From positions 643,950 through 707,949 of the forward strand of contig NC_134026.1 in NCBI RefSeq assembly GCF_964204645.1: a DNA stretch of 64,000 bases, read 5' to 3'. The position numbers and the translations under genes were made by a program. Below the pieces are notes generated by a model. That model did no database searches. It saw nothing but the letters and a program-made list of their open reading frames with translations, and was not told the DNA's origin. Below are positions 20,825-45,767 of the stretch, in pieces (position 1 is the first letter of the stretch; the number at the start of each line of letters is the position of its first letter). Source of the DNA: Tubulanus polymorphus (Eukaryota; Animalia; Nemertea).

Positions 20825-21917
20825 ATGATGAAGCTGTAAGTAATTCGCTAGAAAATTCATCATTCAATTGGAACCTGCTTGACATTACTTTACGTAGATT
20901 TACCCAATCATGGTATTGATGATTTTGCGTTGTTTTTTTCTAGATCATTCTTACTAATCGCACTATCCGCAGTAATTGGATCTGTTGTTAGTCTGGATAA
21001 GACGACCTCATCATCCGACAACAACTTCCCTTCGAAACTCGCTAAACGACTGGCTAACGCACCGATACAGAATCTGCCTAAACCATTGCAATCTGATATA
21101 GCAAAAGAAACAAGGTATCATGATATGAATTCGTGCGGATGATTTTTACTTTATTGCTCCTGATATTCATGCAGTAAACACCGTGTTTGGTTCGGAATTC
21201 TTTCCTCAGTTGTTTCAGTTACTTGCGCTGGTTTAATCATTCGTTTTCTTTTCAGTACATGGTGTTGTGAAATTAACGTAGTGAAGCAGGGTAAACGGTC
21301 AATAGGAACCGCTGCTTATTACCGCACTAAACTATCATATACTGTTTACAAATCTTGTGGAATAGGATCATGGGGCAGTTGTACTGACTATCTTCAACAA
21401 TACAAGTAATTTGAAAAACTACTTTAAACGAGCAACATCGAGATCCTTCTTGATTAAATGTTGTATGGGACCTTCCGAACGTGGCTCATACTTCGTTTTG
21501 TTTTACTCCAAAAAACGATGAAGTCTTTTGGATTTTTTTTTAGGTTAAAGGTGGTCTATGGAATCAAGTATAAATACTTCACGTATAAAGAGCAATGTCC
21601 GACAGAATATCAGATATGTTGTTCCGGATACCTGTTAGTGGCTGGTCAATGCATGTGTAAGTACGATAGAAATCTCGACATCAATCTTTCGTCATTAAAT
21701 ATCTTGCGAAAAAAAAGAACCGTTACATTGTTCCGAAATCATGGACGACATTTTGGTCATCTTTGTCACACGAAACGCAACCTCATTAAGGGTCGCACTA
21801 ATGTTGTTTAAACGAGGAAGGAATTAGTTTATGTCTAATTATCTCATTTCAGCGCTTGAGTGGGTGAAGAAGAATCACAAGAAATTGATGGAACTCAATC
21901 TCATCGGTGCAATCTAA
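20825..21917 (+). CDS. Cluster copy 1: secreted 8-Cys EMI-like protein (subfamily A)
   Basis: 5 exons: MMKL|SFLLIALSAVIGSVVS..LPKPLQSDIAKETS|TWCCEINVV..YKSCGIGSWGSCTDYLQQYK|LKVVYG..EQCPTEYQICCSGYLLVAGQCM|SLEWVKKNHKKLMELNLIGAI*. Confidence 0.85.
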
Positions 21918-22649
21918 TTATCGATGTCTATCGCATAGAATTCTATTAGTATTGACGTAAATAAAGATAATTGTATGTGAACAGAAGAATATTTAGTTAT
22001 TTGTTTAACTTTTCAAGCGGTTTTTATGACCTATTCACGCGGCGGTGAGAGTCGTGGTCAAGCGAAAATGCAAAACCGAAGCTGACTACATACCATTTGA
22101 CGACCAACAGGACCTTACTACCGCATCGATTAGCATGAAAATCACTTAAGATTTTCTCACAATATAACGTTAAACAGGCAATATTAAGAGAGGAAAAATC
22201 GAGAGAAAAAAATTCGAGAGGTTTATTCACAAAGTTGAATTGCTGTCAAGAGCTGCACTTATGGCGTGTTTATCATGTATGAGAGTCACCCGTTTCATAA
22301 GCTGACAATTAAAAGACCCACCGACCCCGATTGTCATCAGCCTACAGGGTTCAGACGGATTTTGTTGATGTACACAGGAGACAGGATTTATTAATTTCAA
22401 GTGTGCCTCTAACACCTGAAAGTCCTCGCTGTCAAATATCGTCACCATGGACCAAGGCGTATCGTATAAACGGTCAATCAATGGTGATAATTTCACAGTT
22501 TATTCACATGTCCGACTCAGTGTGACCGAGATAAGAACTTATCTCGACAAGCAGATCATCGATCGGATAAGCTTTTCTGCGGAGGTGTTATGTCCGGTTC
22601 GGATATAGTGCCCCACCTCAATTTCCATATTGAAAATAGACTTTTAAAA

Positions 22650-24115
22650 ATGCAGCTGTAAGTTAGTGTGCGTGTGAACTGAATCGATGTATATTTAGAC
22701 CTAAAATAACAGATCATCATGATATATTTTTCAATAAGATTGGCTGTAATTGTTCTCACTGGTTTCGCGTTGATATCGGCTGCTGATAATGTGACCGATG
22801 TTGACGCTGGTCAGCAGACGAGCAGTAATTTATTCGGCTGGCTCGCTAAAACATCCATAGACGATTTTCCCGCCGAATTACAAAGAGACATCAGAGAAGC
22901 CGGAGTTATGTAAGTTTCGCTCAAATAATTAGATAAATCAGTGACGTCCAGCTATGACGGCGCGACAAATATTCTTTTAAGGATTTCCTCTCTTAATTCT
23001 TCATCTCTCTGGGGTCAATAGCTCATTAGTTGGTTAGAGTTAACTGATGTATGAATGCTGAAGTATGAATGCTGAAGTGAAGATTGCAATTTGCAATGTA
23101 ACTATGATTTGTCCACCAGTTAACTCTAATACCAACTTTTGAGCAACTGTATCCAGAAGAGAAGTATAGGCTGGGACCTTTTTGATACTAGCATCGATTC
23201 AGCTAAATTATTGTAATATTTCAGATCTCACTGGTGTTGTTCGTTGAAACTGGTGAAATATAAACAGAGTAGTTTTGGAGCAGTCAAGTATTACTCGGTG
23301 TCGCATAGAAAAACTCATTACGGAAAATGCGGAACCTGGGGCTGGTCGAGATGTACCTATCATAAAGTTCACTACTCGTCAGTTCATTTCGAACATATAC
23401 TTTATTCATAGGCAATCGCATTCTAAACTTTTTCGCTCAATACATTTTATTTCTATTGATAAATCATTGCTTTTGAGTTGCAAATAATAGCCAGCAATAA
23501 AGGCATCATTTAAGCTAAAACAAAAAAGAGACTGACCAAATATTCAAAATCACTTGACATCTGATGAATCGAACCCTGGGCCGTCAGCATACGAAGCCAG
23601 ATGACCAACCACTACGCTACTGAACTGGTGTGTAGGGTGGCCTCTTGTACATTCTACTTGACTCGTGGTCAGTGTTGGCGTCACCGCCATTCAGTTGGCG
23701 TCACCACCATTCATTCAGACTTGGTCCAGAAACAGAAGACAGGGCTTGATAAAGAAATCCCCCAAGTCATGTCAGCCTATACAAGAGTTAAGACATAATT
23801 TGGCAGGATATGTAATGAATTTAAATTGTGAATATTATTTGATTTGTAGGAGTAATCACCAATATGTGACCGGGTATTCAAGTGTGAGTTATAAGGAGAA
23901 ATGCCCAGAGAAACACTATATCTGCTGTTCTGGTTATGTACTGGTAGCTGAACAATGTATGAGTAAGTCTTTGTGTACGATCCATTTCAAATACATCCGT
24001 AAGCATTTTCTGGAAATATTCATAAAACACCATGAATTATCTTTTTACAGCCGTCGAATGGGTGAAGGAGCATCACAACGTACTGTTACAATTGAATAAT
24101 GGTGGACATATTTAA
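22650..24115 (+). CDS. Cluster copy 2 (subfamily A)
   Basis: MQL|LAVIVLTGFALISA..DFPAELQRDIREAGV|SHWCCSLKLV..GKCGTWGWSRCTYHKVHYS|SNHQY..EKCPEKHYICCSGYVLVAEQCM|TVEWVKEHHNVLLQLNNGGHI*. Confidence 0.85.
23553..23628 (-). mobile_element. tRNA-derived SINE head in an intron of copy 2
   Basis: Minus strand: A-box TAGCGTAGTGGT (23619-23608) and B-box GGTTCGATTC (23575-23566); stems degenerate. Confidence 0.6.
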
Positions 24116-24449
24116 ACATACCTCCAAACCTACAGAGCTTTGAAACATGACGTTATATCATGACTTGATTTACTTTATGACAAACGTCTCTTGTTCTCAT
24201 TAAAACTTAGAATAAAGTATTTTGAAATCTTGAATGATTTTTAGTTATTCTTTTGTTTTCTCGACTCCCTTTAGTTGGCTACATGTATATTGATAATTCA
24301 ATTTATCCCCCATCGAATTCGATATCTATCCTTAATTGGATATGACGTAGATATTTATATAAAGTGGTCAGATATCTTATCAGTTATTTCTGCGACCGAA
24401 TAGGATACTTTTAATGGTGAGAAGATCGTTTGACCAATTCACGTCTAAA

Positions 24450-25936
24450 ATGAAGTTGTAAGTGACGAAGAGCAGTATTGGAATTGGAAGATTTTGAGGA
24501 TTCTGAACAATTTCCGTTAAGATAATTTTACGGAGCTGAATTTATGAATAATTAACGTATTGTAGGTTACTGAGTTTGGTTGTATTTGTTGTGTTTATCT
24601 ATGTGGTGATTGCGAGTGATCGGGAGGATAGAGAAGTCGGAAATGACCTGGTCGGGTGGCTCGCTAGGACGAAATTACAAGATTTCCCATTGGATTTACA
24701 ACGACAGATTCGAGCCGTTGGAGACAGGTTTGTTCAGTTCCAACCGTATTTTTCTCGCTTTTAAAAAATCAAATAGTTGTATAAGGTATCATTATTCCAG
24801 TACTAAATTCCGGGGCTGAATTGGGGGCCAAAATATTCCTAGGTAACGTTTTGAAATTTTGTTTGAAATATGAAACTCAAGCGCAGTTTATTGATACGTT
24901 ACAAGCGTTACAATGAAAATCCATCCCTGCCATACGCTATTGTAACAAGTAGAAAAACCGTGCTATTGTTTTGTTGTTATTTGTTTTTTGTAGCTCACAT
25001 TGGTGTTGTGCAATAAACGTCATTAAGTACAAGCATAGCACGTACGGTAGAGTGAGATATTACACGACACGACATCGAAACAAACGTTACAAGAAATGTG
25101 GGACCTGGGGCTGGTCTCGTTGTGTCGTCCACGATATAGTTTACAAGTAAATTCATCTATATATATATAGAGAAGTTCAATTCTTAGAGATTTATAGTTC
25201 ATCTGGACATTTTGAACTCAAGCATAGTAGAAATTGTAGAAAAAAGAAACTGATCTTAGTTAGGCCTATTCGTTTGTAGTATATATCGAAATTCTAAAGA
25301 AAGAAATATATTCATACCCTGCTTCCTGGTTTGATGAGATTTAAGAAAAACATCTTGCATTTATTCAAACAGGAAACAAGTCGGATACGCGGTCAAATAC
25401 TCAGCTGTCAGTTTCAAGGAAACTTGTCCAAATCATCATCATACGTGTTGTTCTGGGTACATCCTCGTGGCGCAGCAATGTATGAGTAAGTTGAATGTGA
25501 CAAAATTCATATTTCTACTAATAACCCTGGACATATTGCTGCGAAAAGTATACCGGGATTTTGGTGCTGAATTCGTTAAAAAAACGAGACTTCCCCAGGA
25601 CCAAAATAAGTCGTAATTTTGCTGGAATTGCTTCAACCACAAGAAATTAATAGAAAAAAATCCAATTAGGTTCATTTTCCAAGTATAGATAATGTATTTC
25701 ATTCCTAAATCACATTGTATTGTAATCCTAAATGCTCCTAAATGTCATATTTATAATGTACATCGTCATCAGGTCAGATTTTGTGTGATATATTTCTACA
25801 CTGCAGAAATTGACACTAAAAATGTAATGACACAGATTGAAATCGGTTAATGATATTTATTTATTTTTCAGCCGTTGAATGGGTGAAAGAAAATCACAAA
25901 ATATTAATCGAACTTAAAAATAAAGGTCATATTTGA
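24450..25936 (+). CDS. Cluster copy 3 (subfamily A)
   Basis: MKL|LLSLVVFVVFIYVVIA..DFPLDLQRQIRAVGDS|SHWCCAINV..KKCGTWGWSRCVVHDIVYK|KQVGY..ETCPNHHHTCCSGYILVAQQCM|TVEWVKENHKILIELKNKGHI*. Confidence 0.85.
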
Positions 25937-26246
25937 TTTGTGAATAAATACTGTATTTAAGAAGAATATACACAAAGAATCAATAAAGGTTTATTAAGTA
26001 TTCTATATTGCGATTGAGGAGGAATGACATTACGCAGTCTGCGCCAGCGTCCTATTTCAGAATGATTAGTGGCAAAAATATCGACGATGACACAGCTGTA
26101 GATTTTCCTATATTTCAGTTCCGATTTACTTGAATTTACAGTTCGTTCGTTATCTATCATACACGAAAACAAACAATTGCCGATAAAAAAAACTAAAACT
26201 GTAAAATTTGAATTATTCGAAGCAGGCGAATTTTTCAACGGTCAAT

Positions 26247-27316
26247 ATGTTATTTCGGTGTGTATTTTTGTCCTTGTTATTGACCGTGGTCAGTTGTACG
26301 GAACTGTCATCTGATCGGGTTGACGAGCAGATTGATGAACTCACCGGTTTACCGATAAGACTTGTACGTTACCTGGCCACGGCGGACGTTGAAGAATTAC
26401 CGGATGAAATACAACGAGAAGTAAGGAAGGCCGGAGATAGGTGAGTTTAATATGTAACAATACAAATCACTAGAAAGAGTAAAATCTAACGGCGACAAAA
26501 ATGTGTTCGTGCAATTTACACTAGAATAAAGATAGAGTTGATAGCGATATGTTGAAGAAGATACATTTAAATCTTTCAGAACATTTTGTAATTTCTTTTT
26601 TAATTTATTGCGGAAGGAATTTTATTCGCATTAGAATTGAGTAACTGATTAACTAAACAGAATGAAATTCATGAAACCCAACACATCAATTAACAATATC
26701 TCTTAATATTCGAAAACTTCGGTCGTAAGTCAGAAATGCCTGTTTTCAACGGCTCATATTTAGGAGTGAAAATATTCAAAAATTCAATTTCAGTTCTCAT
26801 TGGTGTTGTCAGAAAGACACCACGCAGATCGTCGTGGAAACTAAAGGGGTACAAAAATACCACCAAGTGACGCATAGACAGAAACGATACAAAAAATGTG
26901 GAACTTGGGGTTGGTCTCGCTGTACCACTTTCAGAGTGCATTATTCGTAAGTGAATATAAAAAAAGATTATGAAAGTGTTTTTTTTTGCCAAGTATCGTG
27001 ATTACTGTCATGAATCATTTCAGGCAAGCGACAGCGTACGGAATTCAATACAGCTCGAAGGTTATTAGAACTGAATGTCCCAATTCTATGGTGGTTTGTT
27101 GTAAGGGTTTCATTCTCGTAGCTGAACAATGCATCGGTAAATATCACCTACAAATTCACCGAGTTACACCTGTTTCCATGTTTCCATGCTTCCGTGCATC
27201 GTGTGGCTTTATTGATCCAAGATTTATTCAAGAATAATTTCTATTTTCCAGAGTTAAGTTTGGTTTACAAACACAAAAATGATCTGTTAAGATTATCTCA
27301 ACTGGGAGCGATTTAA
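26247..27316 (+). CDS. Cluster copy 4 (subfamily A)
   Basis: MLFRCVFLSLLLTVVSC..ELPDEIQREVRKAGDS|SHWCCQKDT..KKCGTWGWSRCTTFRVHYS|QATAY..TECPNSMVVCCKGFILVAEQCI|ELSLVYKHKNDLLRLSQLGAI*. Confidence 0.85.
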
Positions 27317-27647
27317 GTGGATATGTCTCAATAGTTACGATGTAATTCTATTTGAACGCAATAAATAATTGTAACTTGAAACACAACCGAATTTCTGTGT
27401 TTGTCTTTCACCGTGATGACGTGCGGTTCGGTTCTATTAGATTAGTACCACTGCCGTTGGGTTTAGTTCTATATATGGCTTTATCTTAGACTAATGCTTA
27501 GACTCGATAACCACAACCATTAGTGTTTAATCGGTCGGTTCTGATAAAAAATGGGTGTTAATGGTATCAAATTCCACCCAACATTTACAGGATCTCGGGG
27601 ACTGGCATTGTTTCAGCGACTGATCATATTTTAGCTCGTGAATCACG

Positions 27648-28530
27648 ATGATCTTTTTCCCGATTTTCTACACGATTTTGGGCGTCTTCGTTCTGGGCGC
27701 GTCACTGAGCGCAGCGGAATCTGAAGAAAGTCTATCGAATGAAATTCTCGAATTCCTCGCCTCTGCTGAAGTCGAACAATTACCGTTTGGGCTTCAACGC
27801 ATGGTTCGAGCTGCTGGAGACAAGTAAGTAGATGTCGGCAATTCGAATCTGCATTTCAACCAGAAAAAAAACTCTTTTTGATTCACAAATAGTAAAACGA
27901 CTGAAATTTCTTTTCCTCATTGCCTTGACGGTTGCTGCAGTATGAACGATAACTTATTTTCTAAGAGAAAAGTTTGGTTATGATTTCTATATTTCAGTAT
28001 GCACTGGTGCTGTAGGGTTCCCACTACCAAACTGGTTGTTAACAGTCACGGTGCACAGAAATATATACACATCAGTCACCGACGGAAATACTACAGAAAA
28101 TGTGGCACCTGGGGTTGGGGAAGATGCTCTACATATCAGGTGTATTATAAGTACGTCCTAAGATATCACTTGAATTCAAATAAAGTTAATTAGAAGGCCT
28201 AAGGGCTTTATATGACAGTAGTTCCCAAAGTGGTAAAACTATATATTCGTACGTTTTTATTTTCAAGCCAAGGCGTTGCATACCATGCTATGTATAGGTC
28301 TTCGAGTATAGCTATATCCTGTCCGACTCATCACGCCACTTGCTGTCAAGGTTACATTCTAGTCGCTAAACATTGTCTCTGTTAGTATTTTCACTTTCTT
28401 ACCGACCATTTTGATTTCATTACAAACTCATTGATGTTTAATTCTATCCCTTTTCGTTTCAGCGTTGGTTGAAGTGACCAAATACAAGCAAGATCTGTTA
28501 AAACTGCAGAACATGGGCATGCTTGGTTGA
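27648..28530 (+). CDS. Cluster copy 5 (subfamily A)
   Basis: MIFFPIFYTILGVFVLGASLSA..QLPFGLQRMVRAAGDN|MHWCCRVP..RKCGTWGWGRCSTYQVYYN|QGVAY..ISCPTHHATCCQGYILVAKHCL|SLVEVTKYKQDLLKLQNMGMLG*. Confidence 0.85.
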
Positions 28531-29897
28531 ATGAACATATATTCCTTCAATTCAAAAATGAGCTGAACATCATTTTGCAATGAATAATAAACACATTTTA
28601 TTCTGGAATCTTAAGTTTTGCTCATTTCATTTCAATTTATTCAAAGACAGAGATGGATTCACCTCCTATAAAAATGATTCACTGCCAAAGTAACCATTGC
28701 AAGACACGAAGAATTGTCCCAACTATACCACGCCCGTTTTCCAAAGATTTTTCCCAAATTTTCTGCGTTCTTAGAAACAAGACAAAAAAGAATCATCTAG
28801 AAATTAATGAATCGAATCTATCGTTATTGTGAGGAACTGTGAGCTATCAGACTGCTGTCCTATACCGTTATTTCCTGAAACCATCATTTTTATCAATTTA
28901 TCTTATCTGAAACATGATATCTGTGGTAAACAGCTGATAAAATCACATGATTTTAAATGTCTGTAAAAACTATTAGGTACGTATTAACCATCAACCTTTC
29001 GACTGATAGAAAACGTAGTAAAGAACATAGAGACCACCGATCACTTAAACATAGCTTTAGACCCTCCTCAATTCTGTGCTTTGAGTCTGTGAAATCGATA
29101 ATGAAATATCTTTCCCTTTCCTTACTATATTTCACAAGGACCAGTTGAATCTGTCACTCGTAAATCTAAAATTGAGCCTGCAAATCAAACACTCAAAATC
29201 AATGAAATATTGTTTTAAAGTCTATAGTCGCTTCATTCGAAAAGTATTCGTATAAAGAGACCTTTGTATGAAGAAGCATTCGATTCAACACAATAATTAT
29301 AGCTGAAAATGTTGGTTAGTTTCAAAAATATTTCACGAAGAGAATCCTTTGCTTCAATGTTGTTCGATGCAATTGATGAAAATGGCTTTTTAAATATCAA
29401 ATACGTCTCTATTAGATAAGAAAGATTACAAACATATACTGCACATACCAAGCGGTGCTGGGCATATTATAGTTTCATGTTGTTCCCAGATATGAAATAA
29501 AAAAGACAAAACATATTCATATGTAACTGAGTTGATATAAATCTAGAGAGTATGATGTTATTGGAAAGAATGAAGAAAAAAATGACGAAGGATTTCTACA
29601 ATATTTAATCCAATATATCCAGTCAGTAGATTTGGCTGGGCCTCATAATGGATTTTTTATTAATACTATCAAAAACGTACGACAATAATTCCATTATTGG
29701 AGATATAGTTTATAATACTCTTCGTTATCAGATTTACAGGACGAACTTTACATAGTTTTAACTTAATTAACCATAGTGACGATAAGGCTATATCCAGACA
29801 GACCGCTAGATTCCCAGATCACAGTTCCGGAAGAATAGCTTTATTGGTCAGTCTTCAATTCTTGTCTAGATAGTACCATATACTCATCGCCGTTATC

Positions 29898-30903
29898 ATG
29901 AAGTTTATGCTAGCACTTTTTGCCGCTTTTTGTGGCTTCGTCTGGTAAGATCTTTTTAGTAAATGAATTAATATTCAATTCACTAAATTAGAAACTAATG
30001 AATCAACGTTAATAAAAACATACGAATCGAATCTCACAATGTTTCAATCTTTCGCTAAGCGCTCATCGTCAGGGTTTACAAAAATAACTATAGATTTTGT
30101 ATTTTGAATTGATGAGATAATGGTTCATCAAAAAAACACATTTTTGTGAATTATTTTAGTTATGAAGCTGCTAATGGATCGGGTCACTGGTGTTGTACCG
30201 TTGAAGTGAAACCCGAATTTAAAGAGATGAACTACACAAAAGCTGTACCAGACTATAAGCAGATTAAACTAACAGAAACTGTTGGCTATGAAGAATGTTT
30301 TGGTGTTGATGGCGAAAGCACCTACTGTCCTGTGACAAATGAAAAAATCGTGTAAGTTAATTTTGCTGTTTGCTAAAATAGTTCGTATGGTAAAAATTCA
30401 ATGATAATAATTTACGTATTTTGTGGTTTATTTCTACTGTTTCTAGTAACGTGACCCGCTATAGAATCAAACACGTCCATGAACTGAGAGAAATGAAAGG
30501 ATCGTGCCCTCATGATAAACTCGATTGTTGCGATGGATATGTGAAATATAAGGACAACTGTTACGGTTAGTAAATCTACCGTTATCATCGCATAGAAATA
30601 CAATAGATTACTGAATTCAAGTGAAATATATATTCGATATCGTAAGAAGTGTTTTAACACGTTACCAAATCAATATTTGGTCCATCAAAATGTTAGAAAG
30701 TAGGGAGATTATAGTAAAACAAGAAAACAATTTTTGTAGACCAACAAAATTATTTGGTAACAGTAAATATATATTCATATTTTCATTGTTCTCATATTCG
30801 TGATTTCTTAAAAATTGTCACTTATTTTTGTCTTCATTTCATTCTAGGTAATGACGAAATCGAACAAGTAAAATTGTTGGACAGCTTGGGTCTTCTCGGA
30901 TAA
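29898..30903 (+). CDS. Cluster copy 6 (subfamily B)
   Basis: MKFMLALFAAFCGFVC|YEAANGSGHWCCTVEV..EECFGVDGESTYCPVTNEKIV|NVTRY..GSCPHDKLDCCDGYVKYKDNCY|GNDEIEQVKLLDSLGLLG*. Confidence 0.85.
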
Positions 30904-31255
30904 TATGTATTATTTTTTTGAGAAATACACAATATCTACTGGGAAATCATTACATTCTTTCTGTTTATCTCTTGTGGTACATCGGAGAAATTCCAACAAC
31001 TGCGTGACTTATTATACTGCGTTCCTGAGTTGTCTGCATTCTGAACTCCCAACTTCCTTCAAATTCAGTGCCGAAATCCCTTTTTACTTTTCGTAGGAAT
31101 ATTTTTGAGGTCATTGTGCGCAAGCTGAAAATGTAAATGCCAAATAAATTAATTGCATACCACGGAGTTGTCAAACATAACACGTTTTCAAGATAAACCA
31201 AGTGTGTTGATATATTGATGTAAAATGTATGTTGTTGTCAGATAAACAGGTGACA

Positions 31256-32129
31256 ATGATTCGAGAAGTCACGATTTTTTTGTTTTTCTGTGGATTTTTG
31301 TTGCATTTGTCAAATGCACAACAAAATAAACAGTAAGTTGTTTCTTTTAAGAGGATTTGATGTTTGAAAAAATGAACTACCCAATATTGCTGTTAGACAG
31401 TACCTCTCAGAAAGGTGCATCTCACACCCGTCAGAGTGTCAGAGAAATTTGATTGTGGAACAGTTTAACTCAATTACATATCTATTTATCAGGTCGAGAA
31501 AGTGGTGCTGCGATACGATACGGCCATCAATTAAGGAACTGAGAGAGTTAACATACGCTCTCAAAGTCATGAAAACCGTTATTCTTAAAAAGAAGGTCGG
31601 ATATAAAAGATGCCCCGGTCGCCTTTTGAAAAAATGTCCTATCTATGAAGAAGTGAGGAAGTAAGGTTCCAAATTTTTTTTCGTTACACCTGAGGCTGGT
31701 TGCAATAATGAGTCAACCTTTTCCCGAGATTTAAGACCATTTTTAGATTAAGGCTACACCCCAGAATGCTTGCAGAATACTATCGGAATTCCTGCTACGA
31801 TTTTCATGTTTTCCCTACAGACAGGTTCCTCGTTACAAGTCAATGCCTAAAACTGAGCTGACAATTACTCCCGGACAATGTCCTGAGAAAGATTTGATTT
31901 GCTGCGAAGGATACGAAATGTACAAGGGCGAATGTTACGGTAAGGATACATACCAAAACACAATCAGTTTCATACGTTATCATTTAGATATAGATAGCCT
32001 TTATCCGCACTTTAATTGACTTTTTTGATGTTGTTTTTTTGTTCTTTATTCCTTTTTTTTCTATCAGATCCTACAGATATGGACAGCGTAAAGACTCTGG
32101 AATCGTTGGGTTTGCTCGGTATTAAGTAA
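31256..32129 (+). CDS. Cluster copy 7 (subfamily B)
   Basis: MIREVTIFLFFCGFLLHLSNA..|SRKWCCDTI..KRCPGRLLKKCPIYEEVRK|QVPRY..GQCPEKDLICCEGYEMYKGECY|DPTDMDSVKTLESLGLLGIK*. Confidence 0.85.
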
Positions 32130-32396
32130 TTTTGTCAACTATAGAAAATAAAACACGAACATCATCTCTGAGTTTTTGAGCTTTCGTTACATTGGGATTA
32201 TGGCAAGCCCCGTTTGCTTGATTTTTTTATGGCTGGAAATATAGTGGAACAGAATTCACCTACAATCAACAGTCCATATTATTGACAAATGAATTAATAA
32301 GTACTATCACGTAGTTGTCAAAAATAACACATGTTCTACAGATATAGAATGTAGTTATTTAGCAATACATAATTGTTGTCAGATAAACAGTTGACT

Positions 32397-33280
32397 ATGT
32401 TTCGTGAAGTCGTAATTTTTTTGTTTCTCGGAGGATTTTTGTTGCATTCGTCGAATGCGCAAAACACCAGCAATAAACAGTAAGTGGATTTTCAAGGCTA
32501 TTTCTGAACGATTATAAACTTGAACACTTAACTTTGAAACTTAATTCAAAGGTAACTGTTTTTTTTTAAATTTTTTATTTCACACTTGACCCATCCATTT
32601 GAAAAATCACTGAAACTCTGATAATTGGAATCTGCTCGTCTAACAAAAAGGATTTGATTCCTGTATAGAAGATAAACTGAATTGAATTTCATCAACTTGA
32701 AATTGTTTGTGTAAGTAGACCCAGTGTTGTTTATGCTTTGTTTCTTTCGTTTTTAGGGTGAAAAAATGGTGCTGCGCCAAAACACCGAAACCGGTTGAGG
32801 AAAAAGTAACGTTAACTTACGCCCATAAAGTCATGAAACTGGTTGTTATTTACAACATTAAAGAATATGAAAGATGTCCCGGTCGTCTTTTGAAGAAATG
32901 TCCTGTTCTACAAGAAGTGCATCAGTAAGATCAAAATCAATTTTAATGAATGCAATTTCTTGGTTTTGCATAGAATACCTTCATAAAAAGCTCCTTATTT
33001 TTTCATCTCGCAGATATGTTCCTCGCTACGAGGTGAGGCGTAAAACTGAAGTGCTGAAATCCGCCGGGGTATGCGCCGATGAAGATTTGATTTGCTGTGA
33101 AGGATATGAAATGTACAAGGGTGAATGTTACGGTAAGAACGATTTCAAAAACTGAATTTTTCAAGCGCATTAAAAATTCTCCGATGTTGATTTGATAAAG
33201 GAATTTTTTTTTATTTGACAGAACCATCAGCTTTGGAAAATGCGAAAGTTCTGGAATCTTTGGGATTGCTCGGTATCTAG
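32397..33280 (+). CDS. Cluster copy 8 (subfamily B; closest paralog of copy 7)
   Basis: MFREVVIFLFLGGFLLHSSNA..|VKKWCCAKT..ERCPGRLLKKCPVLQEVHQ|YVPRY..GVCADEDLICCEGYEMYKGECY|EPSALENAKVLESLGLLGI*. Confidence 0.85.
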
Positions 33281-33927: not shown

Positions 33928-34654
33928 ATGAGGACACAGATAGTTGTAGCGCTTTTTGTCTGTTTCGCTTTTGCGGTTATAAACACTGTCACCGCGGGTG
34001 AAAGGTTGGTAATCACTTCATAAACATTCTAACGCAACGATCGTGCGGCTTTTCTTCAGATATCTAACCACCATTCTGATAATCGTTGATTTTTGTTCGT
34101 TTTAGCACAAAATGGTGCTGCAATGTGACACCGGAAGTGAAAGAGGAGAAACGTGTGATGTACTACGCGCAGAAGGTGATCGACAGGAAGTCTGTTATTA
34201 GCACTGCTGAATACTTGAAATGCATGGAAAAACATCGCAATTCAAAAGCTTATAAACCATGCGGTACTCCAGTACCAAAATATGTGTATGTATTGGAATT
34301 TCTATCGTCTCTTTGTACCCACAACATTCCAGAAATTGAAAAGTTCAATCAGATACGAAAAATAATCTTGATTGTTCAGCTGAATAATGAATTTCCTCCT
34401 TTCTGTTTGAATCCAGAGCATCGATTCGTTACGTTAAAAAACAGAAAGTTGACAAGGTGCAAGTAAAAGCAAGATGTCCGGAAGAAAATCTGGTTTGCTG
34501 TGAAGGCTATCAGCCACACAATGGCGACTGCTTGGGTAAATAATGAGACTTCGATGATATCCTTTCCCTTGAACATTTTCAGTTCATTTACATCATGATT
34601 GTTTTTCTTGTAGACGCAGAAGAACTCGCTTTAATGTTGGCACTTGGAATGTAA
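33928..34654 (+). CDS. Cluster copy 9 (subfamily B)
   Basis: MRTQIVVALFVCFAFAVINTVTAGES|TKWCCNVT..LKCMEKHRNSKAYKPCGTPVPKYV|ASIRY..ARCPEENLVCCEGYQPHNGDCL|DAEELALMLALGM*. Confidence 0.83.
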
Positions 34655-35063: not shown

Positions 35064-36098
35064 ATGAAGATCTTTATTCTTGTTTCTCTTATCATCTGCT
35101 TCGTGGAACTGCAAGCACAACTGCATAAACTCGAGTAAACCTCATTCTAATCATTCCGCTACATTTCATTCGCGGTTTTCTAAATATTTTCCTAAGGCAT
35201 TTTCTTCATTGTAGTACTGAAAAATGGTGTTGTTCGATTGTACCCGAGGACAAGGTGGAAACGAAAACGTATTCGTACGCTAAGAAGACAGAGAAGAAGA
35301 TAATGATCAAAGTAAAGAAAGGATACGAACCTTGCGAACATGAGTACGACATTGAAGGAGAACCTACTGGAATGTCATGTACAGTTTACGAGAACGTACC
35401 GCAGTAAGTTTCTGTTCTTATGATGGAAAATTTGAAGAACCAAATTCGCAGTTGAATTCTCGGTTGAATATGACTCCATTGTTGAAACACATGGGATTTC
35501 TTACAACCTTAACCTGACCATTAGCTGTGGAACCGAATCCAGTAAATGCGGTAACTGCACGTGAATATTTGTTTACAGTACTGTAACAAGGTATAAGATT
35601 GACTGGAAAATTGAAGAGGTGAGGAATCCACAGAGATGTCCATCTGACAAAATGATCTGCTGCGAGGGATATGAAATGTTCAATGGAGAATGTTACGGTT
35701 AGTAGCAGCCCAGCTATACTTATATGTTGGAAAATTGTAACGATGACAAACTACTTTGATTTCTAATGTCTCCATTTTCAAACATTTCATCATCAACAAT
35801 CAGGCAATGACATTTTGAGCTTAGGCTTATAATATCTTCTTATTTTAATAATTTGATGAAATACTGTGTCCTTGTTTGAAACTACTCCTACGTTCAGATA
35901 GAAAGCAAAAAGAGTCGGAAAAGGTTTCTATGTGTTGATGATTCATTTTCCACGATTCGACGATATCCTAGTATAGTTATCATCATTCTCGAATTCATTC
36001 AGAGTGTGTTCTATATCATCTTCTGATCTTATTTTGCAGAACCATCAGAAATCGAGAACGTGAAACTACTGACATCCCTCGGATTGATGACCAAATAA
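35064..36098 (+). CDS. Cluster copy 10 (subfamily B)
   Basis: MKIFILVSLIICFVELQA..|TEKWCCSIV..EPCEHEYDIEGEPTGMSCTVYENVPH|TVTRY..QRCPSDKMICCEGYEMFNGECY|EPSEIENVKLLTSLGLMTK*. Confidence 0.83.
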
Positions 36099-36195
36099 TA
36101 ACAATGTACACGTCGTATATCTATTGATAAAGTTACTTCATGTATCTGTTGTATTCATCAAATGCATTGAATAAATCTATCAAATAAACATCAGT

Positions 36196-37267
36196 TTATC
36201 CAAGTCCAAGGTTTCCTAACATCTCGGCAATCTCGGCGTCTTCTTTCGCTGTGGACAGAAAAACGACGACATATGAGGAAATTGAAAAATTTCACGAAAA
36301 ATTACATGAAGTGTACTTTTTGCCAATCTTAGAGATAAAACATATTTCCGATGCTATACGTGACGTCATAGAACTAGTTCCCAAACATCATATTGACAAT
36401 GGCATGGCAATGGACTGTGACTTTTACTTCAGTTAACCGCTCGCGTTTGATGGTCAATATACCGTGACGTGAGTTCGCGTAAAATGACCACGATTATATT
36501 TGACTTACTCAGACATTGTCCATTGACGTATTTATAACCATCACAACAATGTAGATATTGTTTAGGACAAGGAACGTTCAGGTGAACTTGTTTGGTCACG
36601 TGTTGAATGACGTAACGAGGAACCTGACTGAAAATAGATACAAGCAGCGTCATTTAAAAAAAACCGTTGATAAATGATCGTTGGTGACGATCTTTGAATT
36701 AAACGGCTGGTTGACCTGAAAGTCATACTGGTCTCAAAGGTTCAACAATTTTAACCACGGGACTTCTTAAAATACGGGAATACGATACAAAATATGATTC
36801 AGATATAAAAAATGAAAAAAACAACATTCATAACTTACCTGATATACTCCTTATAAATAGGACAGTCATATTGACCGGGGACTATATCATCTTCACATTC
36901 TTTATATCCTATTATTGATGTCCTGGTTATATTTTTCATGATAAGTTTTGCTTCTGTAATTTGCATCTTCTCAGTTCGTTCCGTCTCGATGCTGCAACAC
37001 CAGCTCCTGTTAAATAGGATAGAATCATAAGCATTAAGATCATAGAATTAGCCGTTAGTTGGCTATAAAGTTAATGGCACTAAAGACTAGTAATTCACTT
37101 TTAAAGATAGCGAAATGATAGAATTGAAAGATATAAAATGATTTTGAATTTAACATCTTGACTTACTGCTCCTTTTTCCCATTATTCTTGTTCGGTTTAG
37201 CCGATGAACCGAGGCAAACTACCGATGTGAATAGAGCTAAAACTAAAACCCGCTTGACCAGTTCCAT
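36196..37267 (-). CDS. Cluster copy 11 (subfamily B, inverted)
   Basis: MELVKRVLVLALFTSVVCLGSSA..|SWCCSIET..KECEDDIVPGQYDCPIYKEYIS|QVPRY..VPCPKQYLHCCDGYKYVNGQCL|TKEDAEIAEMLGNLGLG*. Confidence 0.83.
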
Positions 37268-37676: not shown

Positions 37677-38976
37677 ATGCAGTTGTCGTTCTACCTGTTA
37701 TTGGTAAATGTTTTAAGCGCAGTTGTAGAAGTTGAAGTAACCAGGAGTTTGTCAGACGATGCTATCGAATTGACCAACCGCAAGTAATCATTACAGATAC
37801 ATCGATTACATTATTTCTGAATATCTCATTTGTTTGTAATAGGATAAAAATTTGTCGGTTTGTTTCCGTGACTGAAAGTATGAGAGATAAAGAAATTCAT
37901 AATAAACTAATTGTGACTAGAGGTTATACAGATGCATCTATGTTTTCGGTGACCATCGTTTATATTCGTTATAACCACCTTTCAACCTGATGAACGATCC
38001 CACAATTGATGATATCTTTAGTTTTACATTTTAACGGTTTCGATAAATCTGAATCTTTTCTTCACAGAAAGGGTAATGATCGACATTTTCGATGATCAGC
38101 ATTTCCGTTTCTCTGTAGCTGAAGTATCATGAATCATAGTAACTGGAAATCATTGTGGAATCGTTCATCATACTGAGAATCAGTTTATCACCGTCACCTT
38201 TCTACTTAACACTTCTATAAAGTAAAATAAGCTAAAATTATTTTCTTGATAGATTTCCTTGATGAATCATTTAGTAATTGCTCCTCGTCTATTCAGCGTT
38301 GGTGTTAACTACTGCTGTAAGAACAGGCCTGTGAATGCAGTTGAGAGAACCCGTGTAACTGCGCGTAAGAAGGCTGAACGATCAGAAGTCCGAATCGGTA
38401 AACAGGACTGTGGATTGTGGGGAATGAAAAATTGCGATAAATATGACTACAAATACAGGTTTGTTACAAGATAGACACCTAACTGTCCTTTTCTCGAAAT
38501 GTATCTTTCTGTGTGTATCATGTATTTGTTATTTGTAAGAATGTAGTATTCATATTCATCTAAACTAGGAGACATTCGTGGCCAATCTAGAGAAACTAAT
38601 GTCCATAAATCTTACATATAGTTGAACGTAGGGTGGAAATACTACCCCATTTTTCTTTTAACAACTCGCAATTATACATTTAGAATGTCTACGTACTATG
38701 AAGTAGAGAGGTACATGGCGACTGTAGACGGTTCATGTCGTAAGGAAGATATAGTTTGTTGTAATGGTTATTTACATATAAAAACTGTCAACAGATGCGT
38801 CCGTAAGTGAAGCTTCCAGGTGTCATGGTTTACGAAATTGATGCCATATATAATCATGGATTAACTATGGATTTCTATCAACTCTTAACATCATTTATCT
38901 CATCTTTTATGAATTCTTTTTTCTTTCATATCTAGTGTTGACGGAATTAGAGAACTTGCTGAACCAACTCGGTTAG
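37677..38976 (+). CDS. Cluster copy 12 (subfamily C)
   Basis: MQLSFYLLLVNVLSA..|VGVNYCCKNRP..QDCGLWGMKNCDKYDYKYR|MSTYY..GSCRKEDIVCCNGYLHIKTVNRCV|LLTELENLLNQLG*. Confidence 0.82.
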
Positions 38977-39388: not shown

Positions 39389-40173
39389 ATGAAATTCCTC
39401 GTGATTTTGGCTTTATTTTTGGCTGTCGCCGTGGCCGAAGAAGATGCTGAACGGATGAAACGTTTTCTGTCTTCCAGGCAGTATGATCTCCCATCGGAAG
39501 TATTTCAATTAGCCAAAAGAAGCAGGTTCGTTAGAAATGTCAGCCAGAAAAAAATCAATTTCGTTAACAATTCGTGTCAGGCCTATACTCTTCATGGTCA
39601 ACGATCATTTCAGCAATGGCAATTTCTGTTGTAAAAATCTACCGGTCACCACGGTAACCAAAACACGTCTGGTTAAGAGGGAGAAAGTCGAGAAATCCGA
39701 ACACAAGATCGGCAAACAGGACTGCGGTTTGTGGGGATTGAAAGATTGTGATTTATATGACTTTAAGTACAGGTTCGTTGATATCAGATCAAATCGATTT
39801 TTGAAAATTCATTTATTGAAAGATGATAATTATGAAATGATGATTATAATTGTTTTGTATAGAATGTCGTATTTTTACGAAGTGGAGAATTTCATCACGA
39901 CAGTTGACGGAACCTGCGCTGAAGAGAACATAGTTTGCTGTAATCAGTACATATTTGTGAAACCTCTTACAAAATGTGTCCGTAAGTAAAACAACCGAAT
40001 AAATCTATTTCACAATTTTGCGGAAAATATATTCCTTTCATTATTGCGACGGTGCTTTCATTGAAATACCCAAATTCAATTATCGAATCTTCAGAAATAT
40101 TGATGCTTTGATTATGTTGTGTCTTTCAGTGATGTCAGATCTTGGAAGGATAATAGAAGAACTCGAAGGATAA
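39389..40173 (+). CDS. Cluster copy 13 (subfamily C)
   Basis: MKFLVILALFLAVAVA..DLPSEVFQLAKRSS|NGNFCCKNLP..QDCGLWGLKDCDLYDFKYR|MSYFY..GTCAEENIVCCNQYIFVKPLTKCV|LMSDLGRIIEELEG*. Confidence 0.85.
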
Positions 40174-40387: not shown

Positions 40388-41355
40388 TCAGCCATTCAAT
40401 TTGTCTATGACGCTGTCGAGTTCATCAATAGCTGAAAGGAAATAATAGAAAACAACCTGAATAACGGAATAGACGAATAAGTACCGAGGGTCACACAATG
40501 CATGACCATTCACCAGCTAATACGACTCATGACCTCTGAATACAAGCAATAGATTCTTTAAAGTTTCAGTTTGTTTTGATACACACCGACACATTTGTTG
40601 AGAGCTTTTATGAACATGAAGCCTTCACAGCAAACTTTATCTTGTTCTGCACAACTTTGATCAGTTGGTGCCGCGTATTTCTCGATCGCGTAATACCAGA
40701 ACATTCTGAAACAGTTTTAATACAATCTAATTTCTGCTTTATTTATACTAATACGTCGGAACCACGTGAATTTCTATACCTGTATCTCATAGCATATTTC
40801 GAGCAGACTTCAGTAAAAAACAAGCCACATCTTTCATATCCGGAAATGTAATTCCATTTTTCTGCTCGTCCACGTTTTTCCATACGGGTTTTAATGATTG
40901 GCCTCTTCGGGGCATTCTTACAGCAGAAATTCTCAGAACTTCAATGAAATAAAGAATTAATATGTTGAGACCGGTGTCAACCCAAGAAATAGATTAGTAT
41001 ATATCTTTAAAGCGTTTGTTCCCCGGGGACCGTAACAACGTCTGGTATTCCTTCACCTGTCTGGTTGTCTCCACAGAGATCTCCGTCGCTCTACGATTCT
41101 GTGATAGATCAGATCAGACACTAAGGTTCTTGGCGAAGGTATTCCAGACTATTCGAAAAATGTTCTACTTGAGGATAAACAAGACTATGATGTCAATTTT
41201 TTGCTGTCAATAAAGCGGGGCTCGTTTTAACGAATGAAAATATTGTTCAAATATAGTCACCTTCGTTTTGAAATATTACTCGGTTTTGACGTTTCCCCGC
41301 CATGATCAAATGCTGCTGCTAAACTGAGCAGAACCAGTAGAGTAATACACCTCAT
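40388..41355 (-). CDS. Cluster copy 14 (subfamily C)
   Basis: MRCITLLVLLSLAAA..ISKRS|SENFCCKNAP..ERCGLFFTEVCSKYAMRYR|MFWYY..QSCAEQDKVCCEGFMFIKALNKCV|AIDELDSVIDKLNG*. Confidence 0.8.
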
Positions 41356-41685: not shown

Positions 41686-42482
41686 CTATTTGTTGATTTT
41701 GATGAGTCCGGCATCTAAAAGGTCCTTCATAGTGCCGACAAAATCTCCATTTCTCACATCTTCTTTAGCTGCGAATAGTACAAAATAGAACAATAACATT
41801 TCAGACACATCACGTAGAATAGATGAGGAGCTTCAGAAAGATGAAAATTTTCTTACAGATGCAATTCTTGGCGACTAAGATGAAACCGTCACAGCAGGTC
41901 AGTTTGCCTCCCTCGTCCGGACACTCAAACGTTTGTTCACCCTTTACCGTTTCCACGGAATATTTCGGCGCGGTGCTGATAAAATAATATGGAGAAATTT
42001 GGTATGACACATACGATATAGGATAAATATTAGACACATACATTCAATAAGTAACCTGTATTTCATTTCGTAAATCGAACAGCGCTCAAAGCCAAGGTCA
42101 CCACATGATGTGTAACCAGTCTTAACGAGTTGTGAAACTGGAACTATTTCTAGTTTAATTCTTGTCTTCTGAATGGCTTTCGCAGGAGTTCCATTTATAC
42201 AACACCAGTTACTGAAATAAACAGAATATAATTTCGTTTATCAAATGAAACGTGAATTATTCTTACCATTCGAATCAATAGCGAGAGTATTCGAAGATTG
42301 TTTCTGAATACAAACCTGTTGTCTTTTTCCGATCGGCGTTTGCGACTGAAATACTGTCTCGTCGATCTCGGCAAATTAGCCGGATCAAGATTTGCTAATT
42401 GGTCAAGAATATCATCGGTCAGTTCAATCGCCTGAGAAGCGACAATCCCGAAAAATAAAACAAATATTGTCAACTGATTCAT
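41686..42482 (-). CDS. Cluster copy 15 (subfamily D)
   Basis: MNQLTIFVLFFGIVASQA..NLPRSTRQYFSRKRRSEKDNS|NWCCINGT..TSCGDLGFERCSIYEMKYS|TAPKY..FECPDEGGKLTCCDGFILVAKNCI|SKEDV..MKDLLDAGLIKINK*. Confidence 0.85.
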
Positions 42483-42751: not shown

Positions 42752-42830
42752 TTTCCTAATCAATCATTCCTAATCAACCATTCCTAATCAACCATTCCTA
42801 ATCATCAATTCCTAATTATCTATTCGTAAT
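42752..42830. repeat. Short 14-bp tandem repeat
   Basis: About 5 units of TTCCTAATCAA(C/T)CA. Confidence 0.7.
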
Positions 42831-43215: not shown

Positions 43216-44848
43216 TTAGCGGTTTAAAATTCCGAGATCATTCAACTCATTCAACGCGTCAACAAAGTCATCATCTTTCACTGAACTCTTATCTACAATC
43301 GAAACAAAAATATCAATGAAATCAAATGAAAAAAAAAATAACGCTGGTTTCATACGGAAGCCTGATTAGGACAATAATTGGTTTCTATCCGATATCTCAA
43401 ATCACAGAATAGTTTGCGTACATTATCTACGTGTGTCGTTGTAAATATCGTAAGATACAAACATTTATAATCGTGGTCGATCGTGTATTTCAGGTGCAGA
43501 TATTGATATCATTTTTAGGTAACCGCAGCCACTCGTAAATTATGCTTAAGACGACTACAAATAATTCTTACAGGGATCGTTTATGCGCAATCTCTAGATT
43601 GACCATATATAGGTTATCTAATCGGAACATTCTTGAGAAAACCAGTTCTGGCATCAACGACAAAAAGTCACGTTTTTGTTACGTGACGAAGGTATAGTGG
43701 CTTCTTGTACACAAGAACTTCGTGATGAAAAAAGCTATTCTATTTCCTTTTTCCTAGGATATTTCACACCGTTTTAATACTTTTCTGTGAGTTCTCACAG
43801 AAGAAACAAAATATGAAATTTCTGATGAAAATTCATGACTAGAGATATATAAAATTTGAATTTTTGACGGTTGATTAACGATTTTCGTTCTGGCGGATTA
43901 ACGGTCTGGTACATATATTAATTCTGATCTCACCGAGACAGTTGCCCCCGATATTCAGATAACCTTTGCAACATTTGACTTGATTTTCGGGGCACGAGTT
44001 CCTCTGCGGTACATCGACAAACTCAAGCATATATTCAGGTTCCATTCTGAAATTATTCATTATCATATACAAGCGCAATGAAAATATTGGGGTGATCCGA
44101 TAAAAGCTACGTATGGACTGGTCATTTGTTAAATTGTATTCAAGAGAATTACTGAACCATCATCAAAATGGCTGAACCTGAGTCTAAATACCTACCGATA
44201 CTTTATGTCATATACTGAACATCGTTTGTTGCCGATCGCTCCACATTTTCTGTAACCAACTTTTTGAACATCGCCTTTTTGGACTTGATTTACTTTGACT
44301 CTCGTTATTCGCACGATCGTTGCCGGTATTTCATTTATGCAACACCAATGACTGACAATGTATAAAAACCACAACAATAAAGTCATTTTTTCAAAGATTT
44401 CTCAATATTTTCCAATTTCTAAGTGATTAAAACCAGACAGCGATGAATTTTTGGATCACTTTTTGCACAAATTTTTCAAACTTTCCAGACTTATGGATTC
44501 CCATTGATGAAAATCTGTCCGTGTCGTTAAACAATTCAGAGACAATCCGGTAGTCGCAGTCACAGAGAGAAAAACCACTCCAAAAACTGCTTATATAAGA
44601 TGACTTTAAGGATATAGTCGAGACGTCGAAAGAAAACCTTTTCAGACTTGTTTCTCATGCGGGGTGTTTCCTTTTCTTTGTTATAGATTCCGCTGCCTGT
44701 AGATCAATGATTTCATGAGATATCAAAAAAGCGAAATGAAGCAATCGGCGTACTTATCACTTGGGTCGTCATTTTGTCTCTTCGATCTCTTGGCTCCGAT
44801 AGACACAACAAACAACGCGAGGAATACTACCAATACGCGAACATACAT
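43216..44848 (-). CDS. Cluster copy 16 (subfamily D)
   Basis: MYVRVLVVFLALFVVSIGAKRSKRQNDDPSDN|HWCCINEI..RKCGAIGNKRCSVYDIKYR|MEPEY..NSCPENQVKCCKGYLNIGGNCL|DKSSV..ALNELNDLGILNR*. Confidence 0.83.
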
Positions 44849-45236
44849 TTTCAGTATTTGGTAGTTATTCTACAACAAGCTGAATCTCTACTAGTAGCTA
44901 GTTCTCTTTTTTGTCGGAATAAAATACGATTTGTTTTATGTTTTAACAATTCGAACAATGATCGGAGGTTGATAAGTATATTGATGTAAAAATGCGCATA
45001 TGTCGATATGAAAGCGTGAGATATTTCACATTTTTAACACAACGCGAAATTCACTGTTTTTCTAATGATAGATTCAGGTTCACCGGATATTGAAATAAAC
45101 ATCAAACGCTGTCATTGAACTCGTGGACCAATAAAACACACAATTTCATAAAGAAAGAAATTTTCATTTTTTTTTTTCAATTTTATTTCTGCATGTACAA
45201 ACTGAAACGAATCGACTGATTATAGTGTAACACACT

Positions 45237-45767
45237 TTATCCTTTAAATGCATTGATGTTGGACACCAATTTTGAAAGTTCTCGAAAATCTAGAAAATAA
45301 TAAAAGGACATTTAGAACTGATGTTTTTGACCAAGTTCCACGGTTATGAGCTAACATTTCAATAATTGAAAATAAACTAATTTCATCTCACAGTCAAATC
45401 AAAACCCACAACTAAGGAACTGGATGCTTGAATGAAGAACGTCATAACTAAAAACCCTCGTCACATATTTTCACTTACCAACACATTTGTTAATAGATTT
45501 GATAAATAAGTATCCCGTACAACAACTGCGATCTTTTTGTGGACATCCTCTCAAACTAGCTCCATTCCGACAACAATATCTATTATCAGAGCTAAAAATA
45601 GAACAAATTTTATCGTTTAGCAGAAAAAAAAACGTATTAGAAAAATTATACAAGTTCAAGTGAAAATCATGAATCAATCACCTCCGTCTCCTGTTTGTTC
45701 TGTCCTGGCAATCTGCCATCGTGATTAACATAATCGCTATTAAAACCAGAATACCGACGGTTTTCAT
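45237..45767 (-). CDS. Cluster copy 17: stalk-less 6-Cys miniprotein (subfamily C-like)
   Basis: 3 exons: MKTVGILVLIAIMLITMADCQDRTNRRRS|SDNRYCCRNGASLRGCPQKDRSCCTGYLFIKSINKCV|DFRELSKLVSNINAFKG*. Confidence 0.82.

Follow-up and report, generated by a model that had tools for sequence, protein, structure and literature searches.

A tandem array of 17 small cysteine-rich genes in the nemertean Tubulanus polymorphus raises two questions: did this family arise within nemerteans, for instance as a set of venoms, and what might its products do? The array occupies positions 20825 to 45767 of the stretch of DNA that we analysed (hereafter the window), which comprises 64,000 nucleotides of contig NC_134026.1 in assembly GCF_964204645.1 (forward strand, positions 643,950 to 707,949). 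The answer to the first question is that the genes belong to an undescribed ancient family and not to a nemertean venom novelty. The answer to the second is more tentative and is weighed below against several alternatives.

A six-frame scan with exon modelling gave 17 gene models, 12 on the plus strand and five on the minus strand, all with GT..AG introns and no internal stops (Table 1). The original prediction of 17 genes with intact frames and splice sites in 25 kb thus holds, as does the shared skeleton: genes 1–16 have the pattern [WYF]CC-C-C-C-CC-C, with eight cysteines in the mature part and core intron phases 2, 2, 1. Gene 17 is a reduced form with six cysteines and phases 2, 1: the two middle cysteines, their surrounding sequence and the middle intron are missing. 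The copies are as strongly diverged as had been claimed (pairwise identity 13–60%), and the four subfamilies were recovered, but the membership of gene 17 in the one with genes 12–14 is ambiguous because of its long branch. The core motif C-x5-8-CC-x-[GQ]-[YF]-x6-8-C occurs 17 times in the window, always in the array, and never in 60 order-2 Markov simulations of the region; the upstream motif [WYF]CC..C..C occurs 16 times, all within the array (null mean 0.02, maximum 1). All 17 models begin with a hydrophobic stretch (best nine-residue Kyte–Doolittle mean 2.4–3.6, judged by hydropathy alone); this leader, once described as a signal peptide, would presumably be cleaved. Eleven models are letter-for-letter equal to database proteins, 10 of them named as uncharacterised T. 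polymorphus proteins. For genes 4, 5, 10 and 15 the model preceded retrieval of the record, and for the other seven the record guided the exon ends. A hidden Markov model (HMM) built from 50 homologues outside the window recognises each of the 17 models (E 4.5e-44 to 1.4e-8) and nothing else in the window, neither another copy nor a remnant. The first exons of genes 1–3, of 8–11 bases, are our own models and have no database match.

It is very improbable that these units are exons of one or a few large multi-domain proteins, or pseudogenes. Three-domain forms do exist in Owenia, but here every unit possesses a start, a hydrophobic leader and a stop of its own, five units lie on the minus strand, 11 models are single database proteins, and AATAAA or ATTAAA lies within 250 bases of the stop in 16 of the 17 genes (a count made without a control). 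The polymorphism data, which cover genes 1–8, argue against pseudogenes: among the 40 polymorphisms listed (27 more exist), 15 are coding, 11 of them synonymous and four non-synonymous, where 23% of sites are synonymous, and the four non-synonymous ones all lie in the leader or pro-region. An in-frame 3-base deletion polymorphism at 21018 (gene 1 exon 2, pro-region) was seen in all three read-contig runs. These runs are of DNA, cross introns and contain no splice junctions, which says nothing either way about expression. Contigs of two samples span 20500–33600 at ordinary depth, and this part of the array is therefore not an assembly artefact, although the best run may be the assembly's own source.

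Word-index searches returned Tubulanus proteins alone and would wrongly suggest an orphan family. This was overturned by an exhaustive profile search of 1.84 billion representatives, which found 113 proteins at E <=0.001 and 63 at 1e-10, mostly of 130–220 residues with a leader and the same cysteines. The taxonomic range given here rests on 30 of these homologues, which were looked up, and does not extend to the 73 other non-query matches. A source was named for 23 of the 30, and all 23 are spiralian: Owenia (8), Liolophura (4), other Tubulanus loci (3), Seison (3), Watersipora (2), and Lineus, Crassostrea and Mizuhopecten (1 each). The family therefore reaches nemerteans, an annelid, a chiton, bivalves, a bryozoan and Seison. 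Further clusters of 51 rotifer and 53 mollusc proteins in the Atlas structure lists (scores 0.83–0.87) are leads only. T. polymorphus itself has at least 20 family genes, the 17 of the array plus P0013, P0015 and P0018, protein records from outside the window; the evidence suggests that two of the three lie on the array's own contig and one on another.

As the original prediction had proposed, there is no full-length match to a characterised family: Pfam, PDB and fold searches give none at cut-off or significance, and the PDB sequence search has no match at E up to 10. We found no published description of the family in a search that covered subscription journals thinly, and two nemertean mucus proteome supplements (Cephalothrix, Kulikovia) may hold members; six gene or protein identifiers returned no papers. 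None of the 37 oyster proteins in the spiralian-specific genes of Wu et al. 2020 (PMC7441323) matches, as WCC, CCKG, CCNG and CCKD are absent from supplementary file 2, whose cells are cut above 400 characters. The motif has no matches in the Amphiporus proteome supplement (PMC7460313), a file not checked for whether it contains sequences.

The array had been interpreted as a lineage-specific birth-and-death family. We inferred a careful tree of 36 rows and 119 columns, with 16 window genes (gene 17 was left out) and 20 named homologues, and a quick tree of 82 rows, which left out 40 partial or non-matching hits. In the careful tree, subfamily 1 groups with Lineus and Owenia proteins (support 96/90) and subfamily 2 with a chiton protein (97/93, with a long-branch warning, gene 11 meeting P0045). 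The group of subfamily 3 includes chiton and Owenia proteins (87/91), and that of subfamily 4 includes a chiton protein (90/81). The four proteins of the chiton Liolophura fall one in each subfamily, and the data suggest that they lie on one chromosome. Monophyly is rejected by the approximately unbiased (AU) test both for the 16 window genes (p-AU 0.0004) and for all 20 nemertean rows (p-AU 2.3e-5), and 16 of the 17 genes are closer in score to a non-nemertean protein than to another of the array's subfamilies. Together with the relatives across Spiralia, these results leave the lineage-specific origin unsupported; judged from the sequences, the subfamilies are older than the phyla. The ratio of non-synonymous (dN) to synonymous (dS) substitution rates, computed over whole genes, is 0.14–0.50 in nine pairs. 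Synonymous sites are near saturation in eight of the nine, and on this criterion the duplications within subfamilies 1–3 are local but old. Selection at the whole-gene level is purifying.

AlphaFold, run for gene 5 on 61 sequences, gave a model with a predicted local distance difference test (pLDDT) of 88.5 and a predicted template modelling score (pTM) of 0.62. It consists of two N-terminal helices, a small cysteine-rich base, one long hairpin (strands 69–94 and 100–125, with C94 and C102 at the tip) and C-terminal helices. The model of gene 8 has the same layout (pLDDT 78.8). The predicted fold is thus a six-cysteine base with flanking helices, from which extend strands 26 residues long, or about 85 angstrom if each residue adds 3.3; the position of C3 and C4, rather than the model coordinates, points to a disulfide between them at the tip. 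The C4–C5 spacing is 25 or 27 in 63 of the 70 alignment rows with the full pattern, and the stalk sequence is not conserved. The net charge of the hairpin is positive in 58 of these 70 rows (median +4) and in 13 of 16 window genes. The usual tip reads C-G-hydrophobic-hydrophobic-G-x-x-[RK]-C and has a length of 7 in 54 of the 70 rows: the first Gly is present in 51 of 60 rows, the next two positions are hydrophobic in 74% and 84%, the second Gly is present in 40 of 58, and Lys or Arg precedes C4 in 58%. It is the most conserved part of subfamily 1 (69%) and the least conserved mature part of subfamily 2 (8%), where it is acidic, basic or, in homologues, a long low-complexity insert. One face of the hairpin near the tip is rich in Tyr, Thr and Val.

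The homologues vary around this plan. P0011 (Owenia) and P0029 are three-copy tandem forms, and P0016 and P0019 fuse the family domain to one or two Xlink modules, followed in P0019 by a cysteine-rich domain without family assignment. P0021, P0036, P0042 and P0043 form a subgroup with an additional Cys pair flanking the tip (10–11 cysteines), and in P0062, P0069 and P0089 the tip is expanded by long inserts rich in Pro/Thr/Ser or Gly/Arg/Gln. Forms without a hairpin recur (gene 17, P0094, P0077), and the base is therefore likely a self-sufficient module. A terminal Gly, alone or with Lys/Arg, and dibasic sites are marks of amidation and convertase cleavage in the regulated secretory pathway. 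A terminal G[KR]0-4 is found in 42 of 70 rows (mean 7.5 and maximum 20 over 2000 shuffles), and KR or RR lies no more than 16 residues ahead of W-CC in 25 of 51, a count that none of 2000 shuffles reached (mean 7.9).

The original prediction described an EMI-like layout that stands alone with an extra Cys pair. That layout is seen, and EMI (PF07546) is the only recurrent Pfam match, at a weak level: 3 of 7 members match (best E 0.22, 9.9 bits, P0004), 5 of 61 sequences (best E 0.16) and none of 16 single exons. None of these reaches the gathering cut-off of 25 bits, and the Pfam search thus does not place the family in EMI. The EMI C-terminal consensus WRCCPG(Y/F)xGxxC (PMC3342094) matches none of 110 rows, either strictly or with relaxed EMI spacing, and 54 of the 110 carry CC-x-G-[YF]-x6-C, two residues longer than EMI. 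EMI has six or seven cysteines; eight are present in genes 1–16 and in 70 of 110 rows, many of the rest being partial, and the six of gene 17 reflect loss of the tip pair. A single copy at the N-terminus of a secreted protein, as in EMI proteins, is found in all 17 window genes, and the exceptions in the family are the three-copy forms. The O-fucose motif C1-x4-[S/T] (PMC11949838), counted from either W-CC cysteine, occurs in only 13 of 70 rows; a column 11 residues after C2 is Ser or Thr in 73% and may not be equivalent to the EMI O-fucose site. The nearest predicted structures are a rotifer secreted cluster and EMI proteins of the MEGF10/Draper/EMILIN kind. EMI-bearing proteins fill most rows of both Atlas structure lists, with template modelling (TM) scores of 0.25–0.49 and list scores below the bar; no EMI crystal structure exists (PMC11990869). 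The family is probably a remote relative of EMI and not a member of it.

Searches of solved structures gave only generic long-hairpin matches to pore stems and rings, and the absence of a better match does not make the fold new. The matches, to lysenin, aerolysin and binary-toxin stems, reach E at best 0.16, TM about 0.2 and Z at most 3.6, with root-mean-square deviations of 5–7, and the hairpin alone aligns. That all top rows are hairpins of this kind would suit venom or mucus toxins, for instance small pore formers of the beta-barrel kind, with a stem assembled from the hairpins of several subunits. Nemerteans do secrete cysteine-rich toxins (PMC6410017), and the family is cationic, multi-copy and probably amidated. 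We nevertheless regard this explanation as improbable. The pore matches are insignificant, and the family has no membrane-spanning hydrophobic face like that of the aerolysin-type and binary-toxin beta-pore formers: near the tip, the better face, which is the one that might contact lipid, has a mean hydropathy of -0.55 and on average 1.1 charged residues per row, and it exceeds a hydropathy of 1.5 in only 2 of 70 rows (with the register assumed from the tip cysteines). Moreover, the family occurs in filter feeders and grazers, its whole-gene dN/dS is low, and CC-C-C-C-CC-C is not among the Cys frameworks stated for two nemertean mucus proteomes, which concern peptides of at most 100 residues (PMC12846013, PMC11768458).

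Among the functions originally suggested, recognition or defence fits best, whereas venom and tube-specific roles are weakened by the presence of the family in a chiton, bivalves, a bryozoan and Seison and by purifying selection. The explanation that we favour, though tentatively, is an ancient family of spiralian EMI-like proteins, small and likely to be secreted and processed, whose hairpin likely binds anionic membranes, of microbes or of dying cells, in defence or clearance. Soluble binders of such membranes are favoured because the bracing disulfide, the basic unconserved stalk and the hydrophobic tip match the P2 hairpin of perforin-2, and because Draper and NimB4 recognise such surfaces. 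The P2 hairpin is disulfide-braced and basic, with a conserved hydrophobic tip and an unconserved stalk, and binds phosphatidylserine, cardiolipin and lipopolysaccharide (PMC6989145). The family has the basic stalk, the conserved hydrophobic tip and, by the position of C3 and C4, presumably the bracing disulfide, subfamily 2 being the exception. Among the molecules that Draper recognises are phosphatidylserine and lipoteichoic acid (PMC8092387), and the binding of secreted NimB4 to apoptotic cells depends on phosphatidylserine (PMC8419693). The processing signals well above shuffle levels and the fusion of two homologues to glycosaminoglycan-binding Xlink modules also speak for this explanation. 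In the proposed sequence of events, the signal peptide would be removed, some members would be cleaved at the dibasic sites before W-CC, and the terminal Gly(-Lys/Arg) would give rise to a C-terminal amide. The cationic stalk would then provide electrostatic approach to an anionic membrane and the hydrophobic tip a shallow insertion, leaving the base exposed for a receptor or for clustering. In subfamily 2, variable acidic, basic or long inserts have replaced the greasy tip and would direct the protein to other targets, and gene 17, having lost the hairpin, may retain the function of the base alone.

Several observations weigh against membrane binding. The terminal G[KR]0-4 is present in only 7 of the 17 window proteins, the canonical tip or pattern of net charge is missing from five of the six subfamily 2 genes, and three subfamily 2 hairpins have a net charge of 0 or -1. 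The EMI link is below every threshold, and the likeness to perforin-2 is one of physical character, the Foldseek match being insignificant (E 0.27, TM 0.19). Finally, a conserved endogenous partner would account for the purifying selection and the persistence of four subfamilies in several phyla just as well as a conserved lipid target would.

Alternatively, the proteins could be secreted signalling ligands (hormone-, growth-factor- or pheromone-like), processed and amidated, with the hairpin tip or the C-terminal helix contacting a receptor and each subfamily having its own. The dibasic sites and terminal Gly far above shuffles, the persistence of four subfamilies and the purifying selection all agree with this. 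We find it doubtful, since a hormone would not usually have 17 copies in one array with more elsewhere (P0013, P0015, P0018), Xlink fusions, tandem triplication and tips as variable as those of subfamily 2, and the fold searches brought up no cystine-knot growth factor (best Z 3.6).

Tubulanus and Owenia build tubes, and the proteins could also be components of matrix, mucus, cuticle or tube, in which the hairpins serve as rods of fixed length. These would attach to matrix proteins or glycans, or line up edge to edge as fibres, much like EMI and the EMI-like matrix-binding domain of MFAP2/5 in vertebrate microfibrils. The conserved hairpin length, the three-copy forms, the fusions to glycosaminoglycan-binding Xlink, the low-complexity tip inserts and the Tyr/Thr/Val-rich face speak for this role. 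So do the EMI proteins, which are matrix proteins whose EMI domains may self-interact (PMC3342094), and MFAP2/5, whose matrix-binding domain is EMI-like by structure (bioRxiv 10.64898/2026.05.13.724420); one homologue has a faint MAGP match (E 0.074). The occurrence in a chiton, bivalves, a bryozoan and Seison shows, however, that the family is not tied to tubes. A bulk structural protein needs neither an amidation-type end nor a conserved small greasy tip, and the window genes lack the repeats typical of structural secretions. A matrix role is thus a possibility, a little stronger than the ligand one and clearly behind membrane binding.

A wider version of the membrane-binding explanation, which we consider speculative, is a spiralian-wide soluble recognition system of 'base, stalk and tip'. 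Its four tip classes would predate the split of nemerteans, annelids and molluscs and be linked on one chromosome in Tubulanus and the chiton, and the tip would be a swappable payload: an aromatic membrane probe, an acidic or basic loop, a mucin-like insert, or deleted. If true, this system would make up a so far unrecognised branch of innate immunity or efferocytosis in invertebrates and would offer a natural scaffold for display. Should the tip bind anionic membranes, farmed bivalves and their relatives would have a soluble family for recognition or antimicrobial defence that has been missed so far. Wherever a source was named, the proteins are annotated simply as 'uncharacterized'; they belong to no Pfam family but are present in at least five spiralian lineages, including oyster and scallop. 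They offer the simplest free-standing EMI-like domain for structural work, with gene 17, a natural hairpin deletion, and the tip variants of subfamily 2 as ready-made controls.

Table 1. Family genes of the array. Coordinates are positions in the window; exons are given in the order of transcription.
Gene	Subfamily	Residues	Span	Strand	Exons	Remarks
1	1	169	20825..21917	+	20825-20835, 20944-21114, 21256-21405, 21544-21656, 21853-21917	HMM E 1.6e-33; no identical record retrieved
2	1	169	22650..24115	+	22650-22657, 22739-22909, 23225-23377, 23850-23962, 24051-24115	third donor weak (GTCAGT); HMM; no identical record retrieved
3	1	166	24450..25936	+	24450-24457, 24566-24727, 24994-25146, 25373-25485, 25872-25936	HMM; no identical record retrieved
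4	1	174	26247..27316	+	26247-26440, 26794-26946, 27024-27136, 27252-27316	P0008 (LOC141900185)
5	1	169	27648..28530	+	27648-27823, 27998-28150, 28268-28380, 28463-28530	P0009 (LOC141900486); folded as m72406dec1524
6	2	137	29898..30903	+	29898-29944, 30160-30351, 30447-30565, 30848-30903	P0006 (LOC141899792); acidic tip
7	2	141	31256..32129	+	31256-31332, 31493-31660, 31821-31939, 32068-32129	youngest pair with gene 8 (dS 0.57, dN 0.29)
8	2	142	32397..33280	+	32397-32479, 32757-32924, 33014-33132, 33222-33280	P0004 (LOC141900520); folded as mcfce6c9fafd2
9	2	138	33928..34654	+	33928-34004, 34106-34285, 34417-34535, 34614-34654	P0007 (LOC141900465); long basic tip
10	2	145	35064..36098	+	35064-35134, 35215-35403, 35579-35697, 36040-36098	P0034; long acidic tip
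11	2	146	36196..37267	-	37267-37167, 37006-36839, 36627-36509, 36248-36196	P0005 (LOC141899790); acidic tip
12	3	142	37677..38976	+	37677-37783, 38297-38458, 38684-38802, 38936-38976	HMM; no identical record retrieved
13	3	152	39389..40173	+	39389-39525, 39614-39772, 39863-39981, 40130-40173	P0001 (LOC141900224)
14	3	138	40388..41355	-	41355-41261, 40938-40780, 40705-40587, 40431-40388	P0003 (LOC141900601)
15	4	174	41686..42482	-	42482-42316, 42211-42056, 41975-41857, 41768-41686	P0010 (LOC141900249)
16	4	146	43216..44848	-	44848-44754, 44351-44196, 44046-43934, 43292-43216	P0002 (LOC141900494)
17		83	45237..45767	-	45767-45682, 45591-45479, 45289-45237	hairpin-less, 6 Cys (lacks C3, C4, both strands and middle intron); hhalign probability 91.8; HMM E 1.4e-8; no identical record retrieved

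Within the array, an intron of gene 2 holds a short palindromic high-depth element with many loose read ends (23016-23149), probably a small non-autonomous transposon; similar loose ends occur near 29042-29438 and 33298-33450. A 14-base tandem repeat of about five copies lies at 42753-42830, between genes 15 and 16. The left flank of the array is a multi-exon plus-strand gene (~9800-18870) with six RanBP2-type zinc fingers (PF00641) and FG-rich repeats, which we take to be Nup153-like. On the other side, the array adjoins a minus-strand gene for an XK-related protein (46346-48604; PF09815, E 8.6e-48). The XK-related family includes phospholipid scramblases, so this neighbour is suggestive of phosphatidylserine binding, adjacency in an animal genome being weak evidence. 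Farther away are a rhodopsin-family G protein-coupled receptor in one open frame (5030-5986, plus strand; PF00001), an ankyrin-repeat protein in one long open frame, presumably FEM1-like (51688-53727, minus strand), and a 378-residue proline-rich open frame with no Pfam match (62391-63524, minus strand).

How does the family compare with known systems? No weight was given to two possible resemblances, one between the tip and the fusion loop of flaviviruses and the other between the architecture and the knobs of ultralong cattle antibodies. The closest comparison is with EMI proteins (EMILIN/Multimerin, MEGF10/11, Draper/CED-1, EGFL7). Like these, the family is secreted and has, near the N-terminus, a domain with an aromatic-Cys start, a Cys pair round a hairpin tip and CC-x-G-[YF] followed by a last Cys, in a core split over two exons, as reported for EMILIN1 (PMC3342094). 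Unlike them, it has W-CC, eight cysteines, an extra C-P-x5-CC loop and, between CC and the last Cys, nine residues where EMI has seven; it stands alone, with a longer hairpin, flanking helices and an amidation-type end, and does not conserve the O-fucose motif. MFAP2 and MFAP5 (MAGP) are likewise small secreted proteins with one EMI-like folded domain and little sequence likeness, but they lack the C-terminal CC and retain the O-fucose Thr, whereas the family retains the CC and not that Thr position.

The P2 hairpin of perforin-2 (MPEG1) is a functional analogue only. It shares with the family a long basic hairpin with a conserved hydrophobic tip and an unconserved stalk, but the family has neither a MACPF domain nor the three-fold core of P2, and its predicted hairpin is nearly twice the reported 45 angstrom (PMC6989145). 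The Nimrod B proteins, such as NimB4, are also secreted and multi-gene, and it is by analogy with them that a bridging role is proposed; NimB4 is made of NIM/EGF-like repeats, of which Pfam finds none in the family. The nemertean toxins (alpha-nemertides, neurotoxin B-IV, parborlysins and cytolysin A-III) are secreted and disulfide-rich and come from the same phylum. They differ from the family in size, Cys pattern and fold (knottin or helical), and they are lineage-restricted, whereas the family spans Spiralia.

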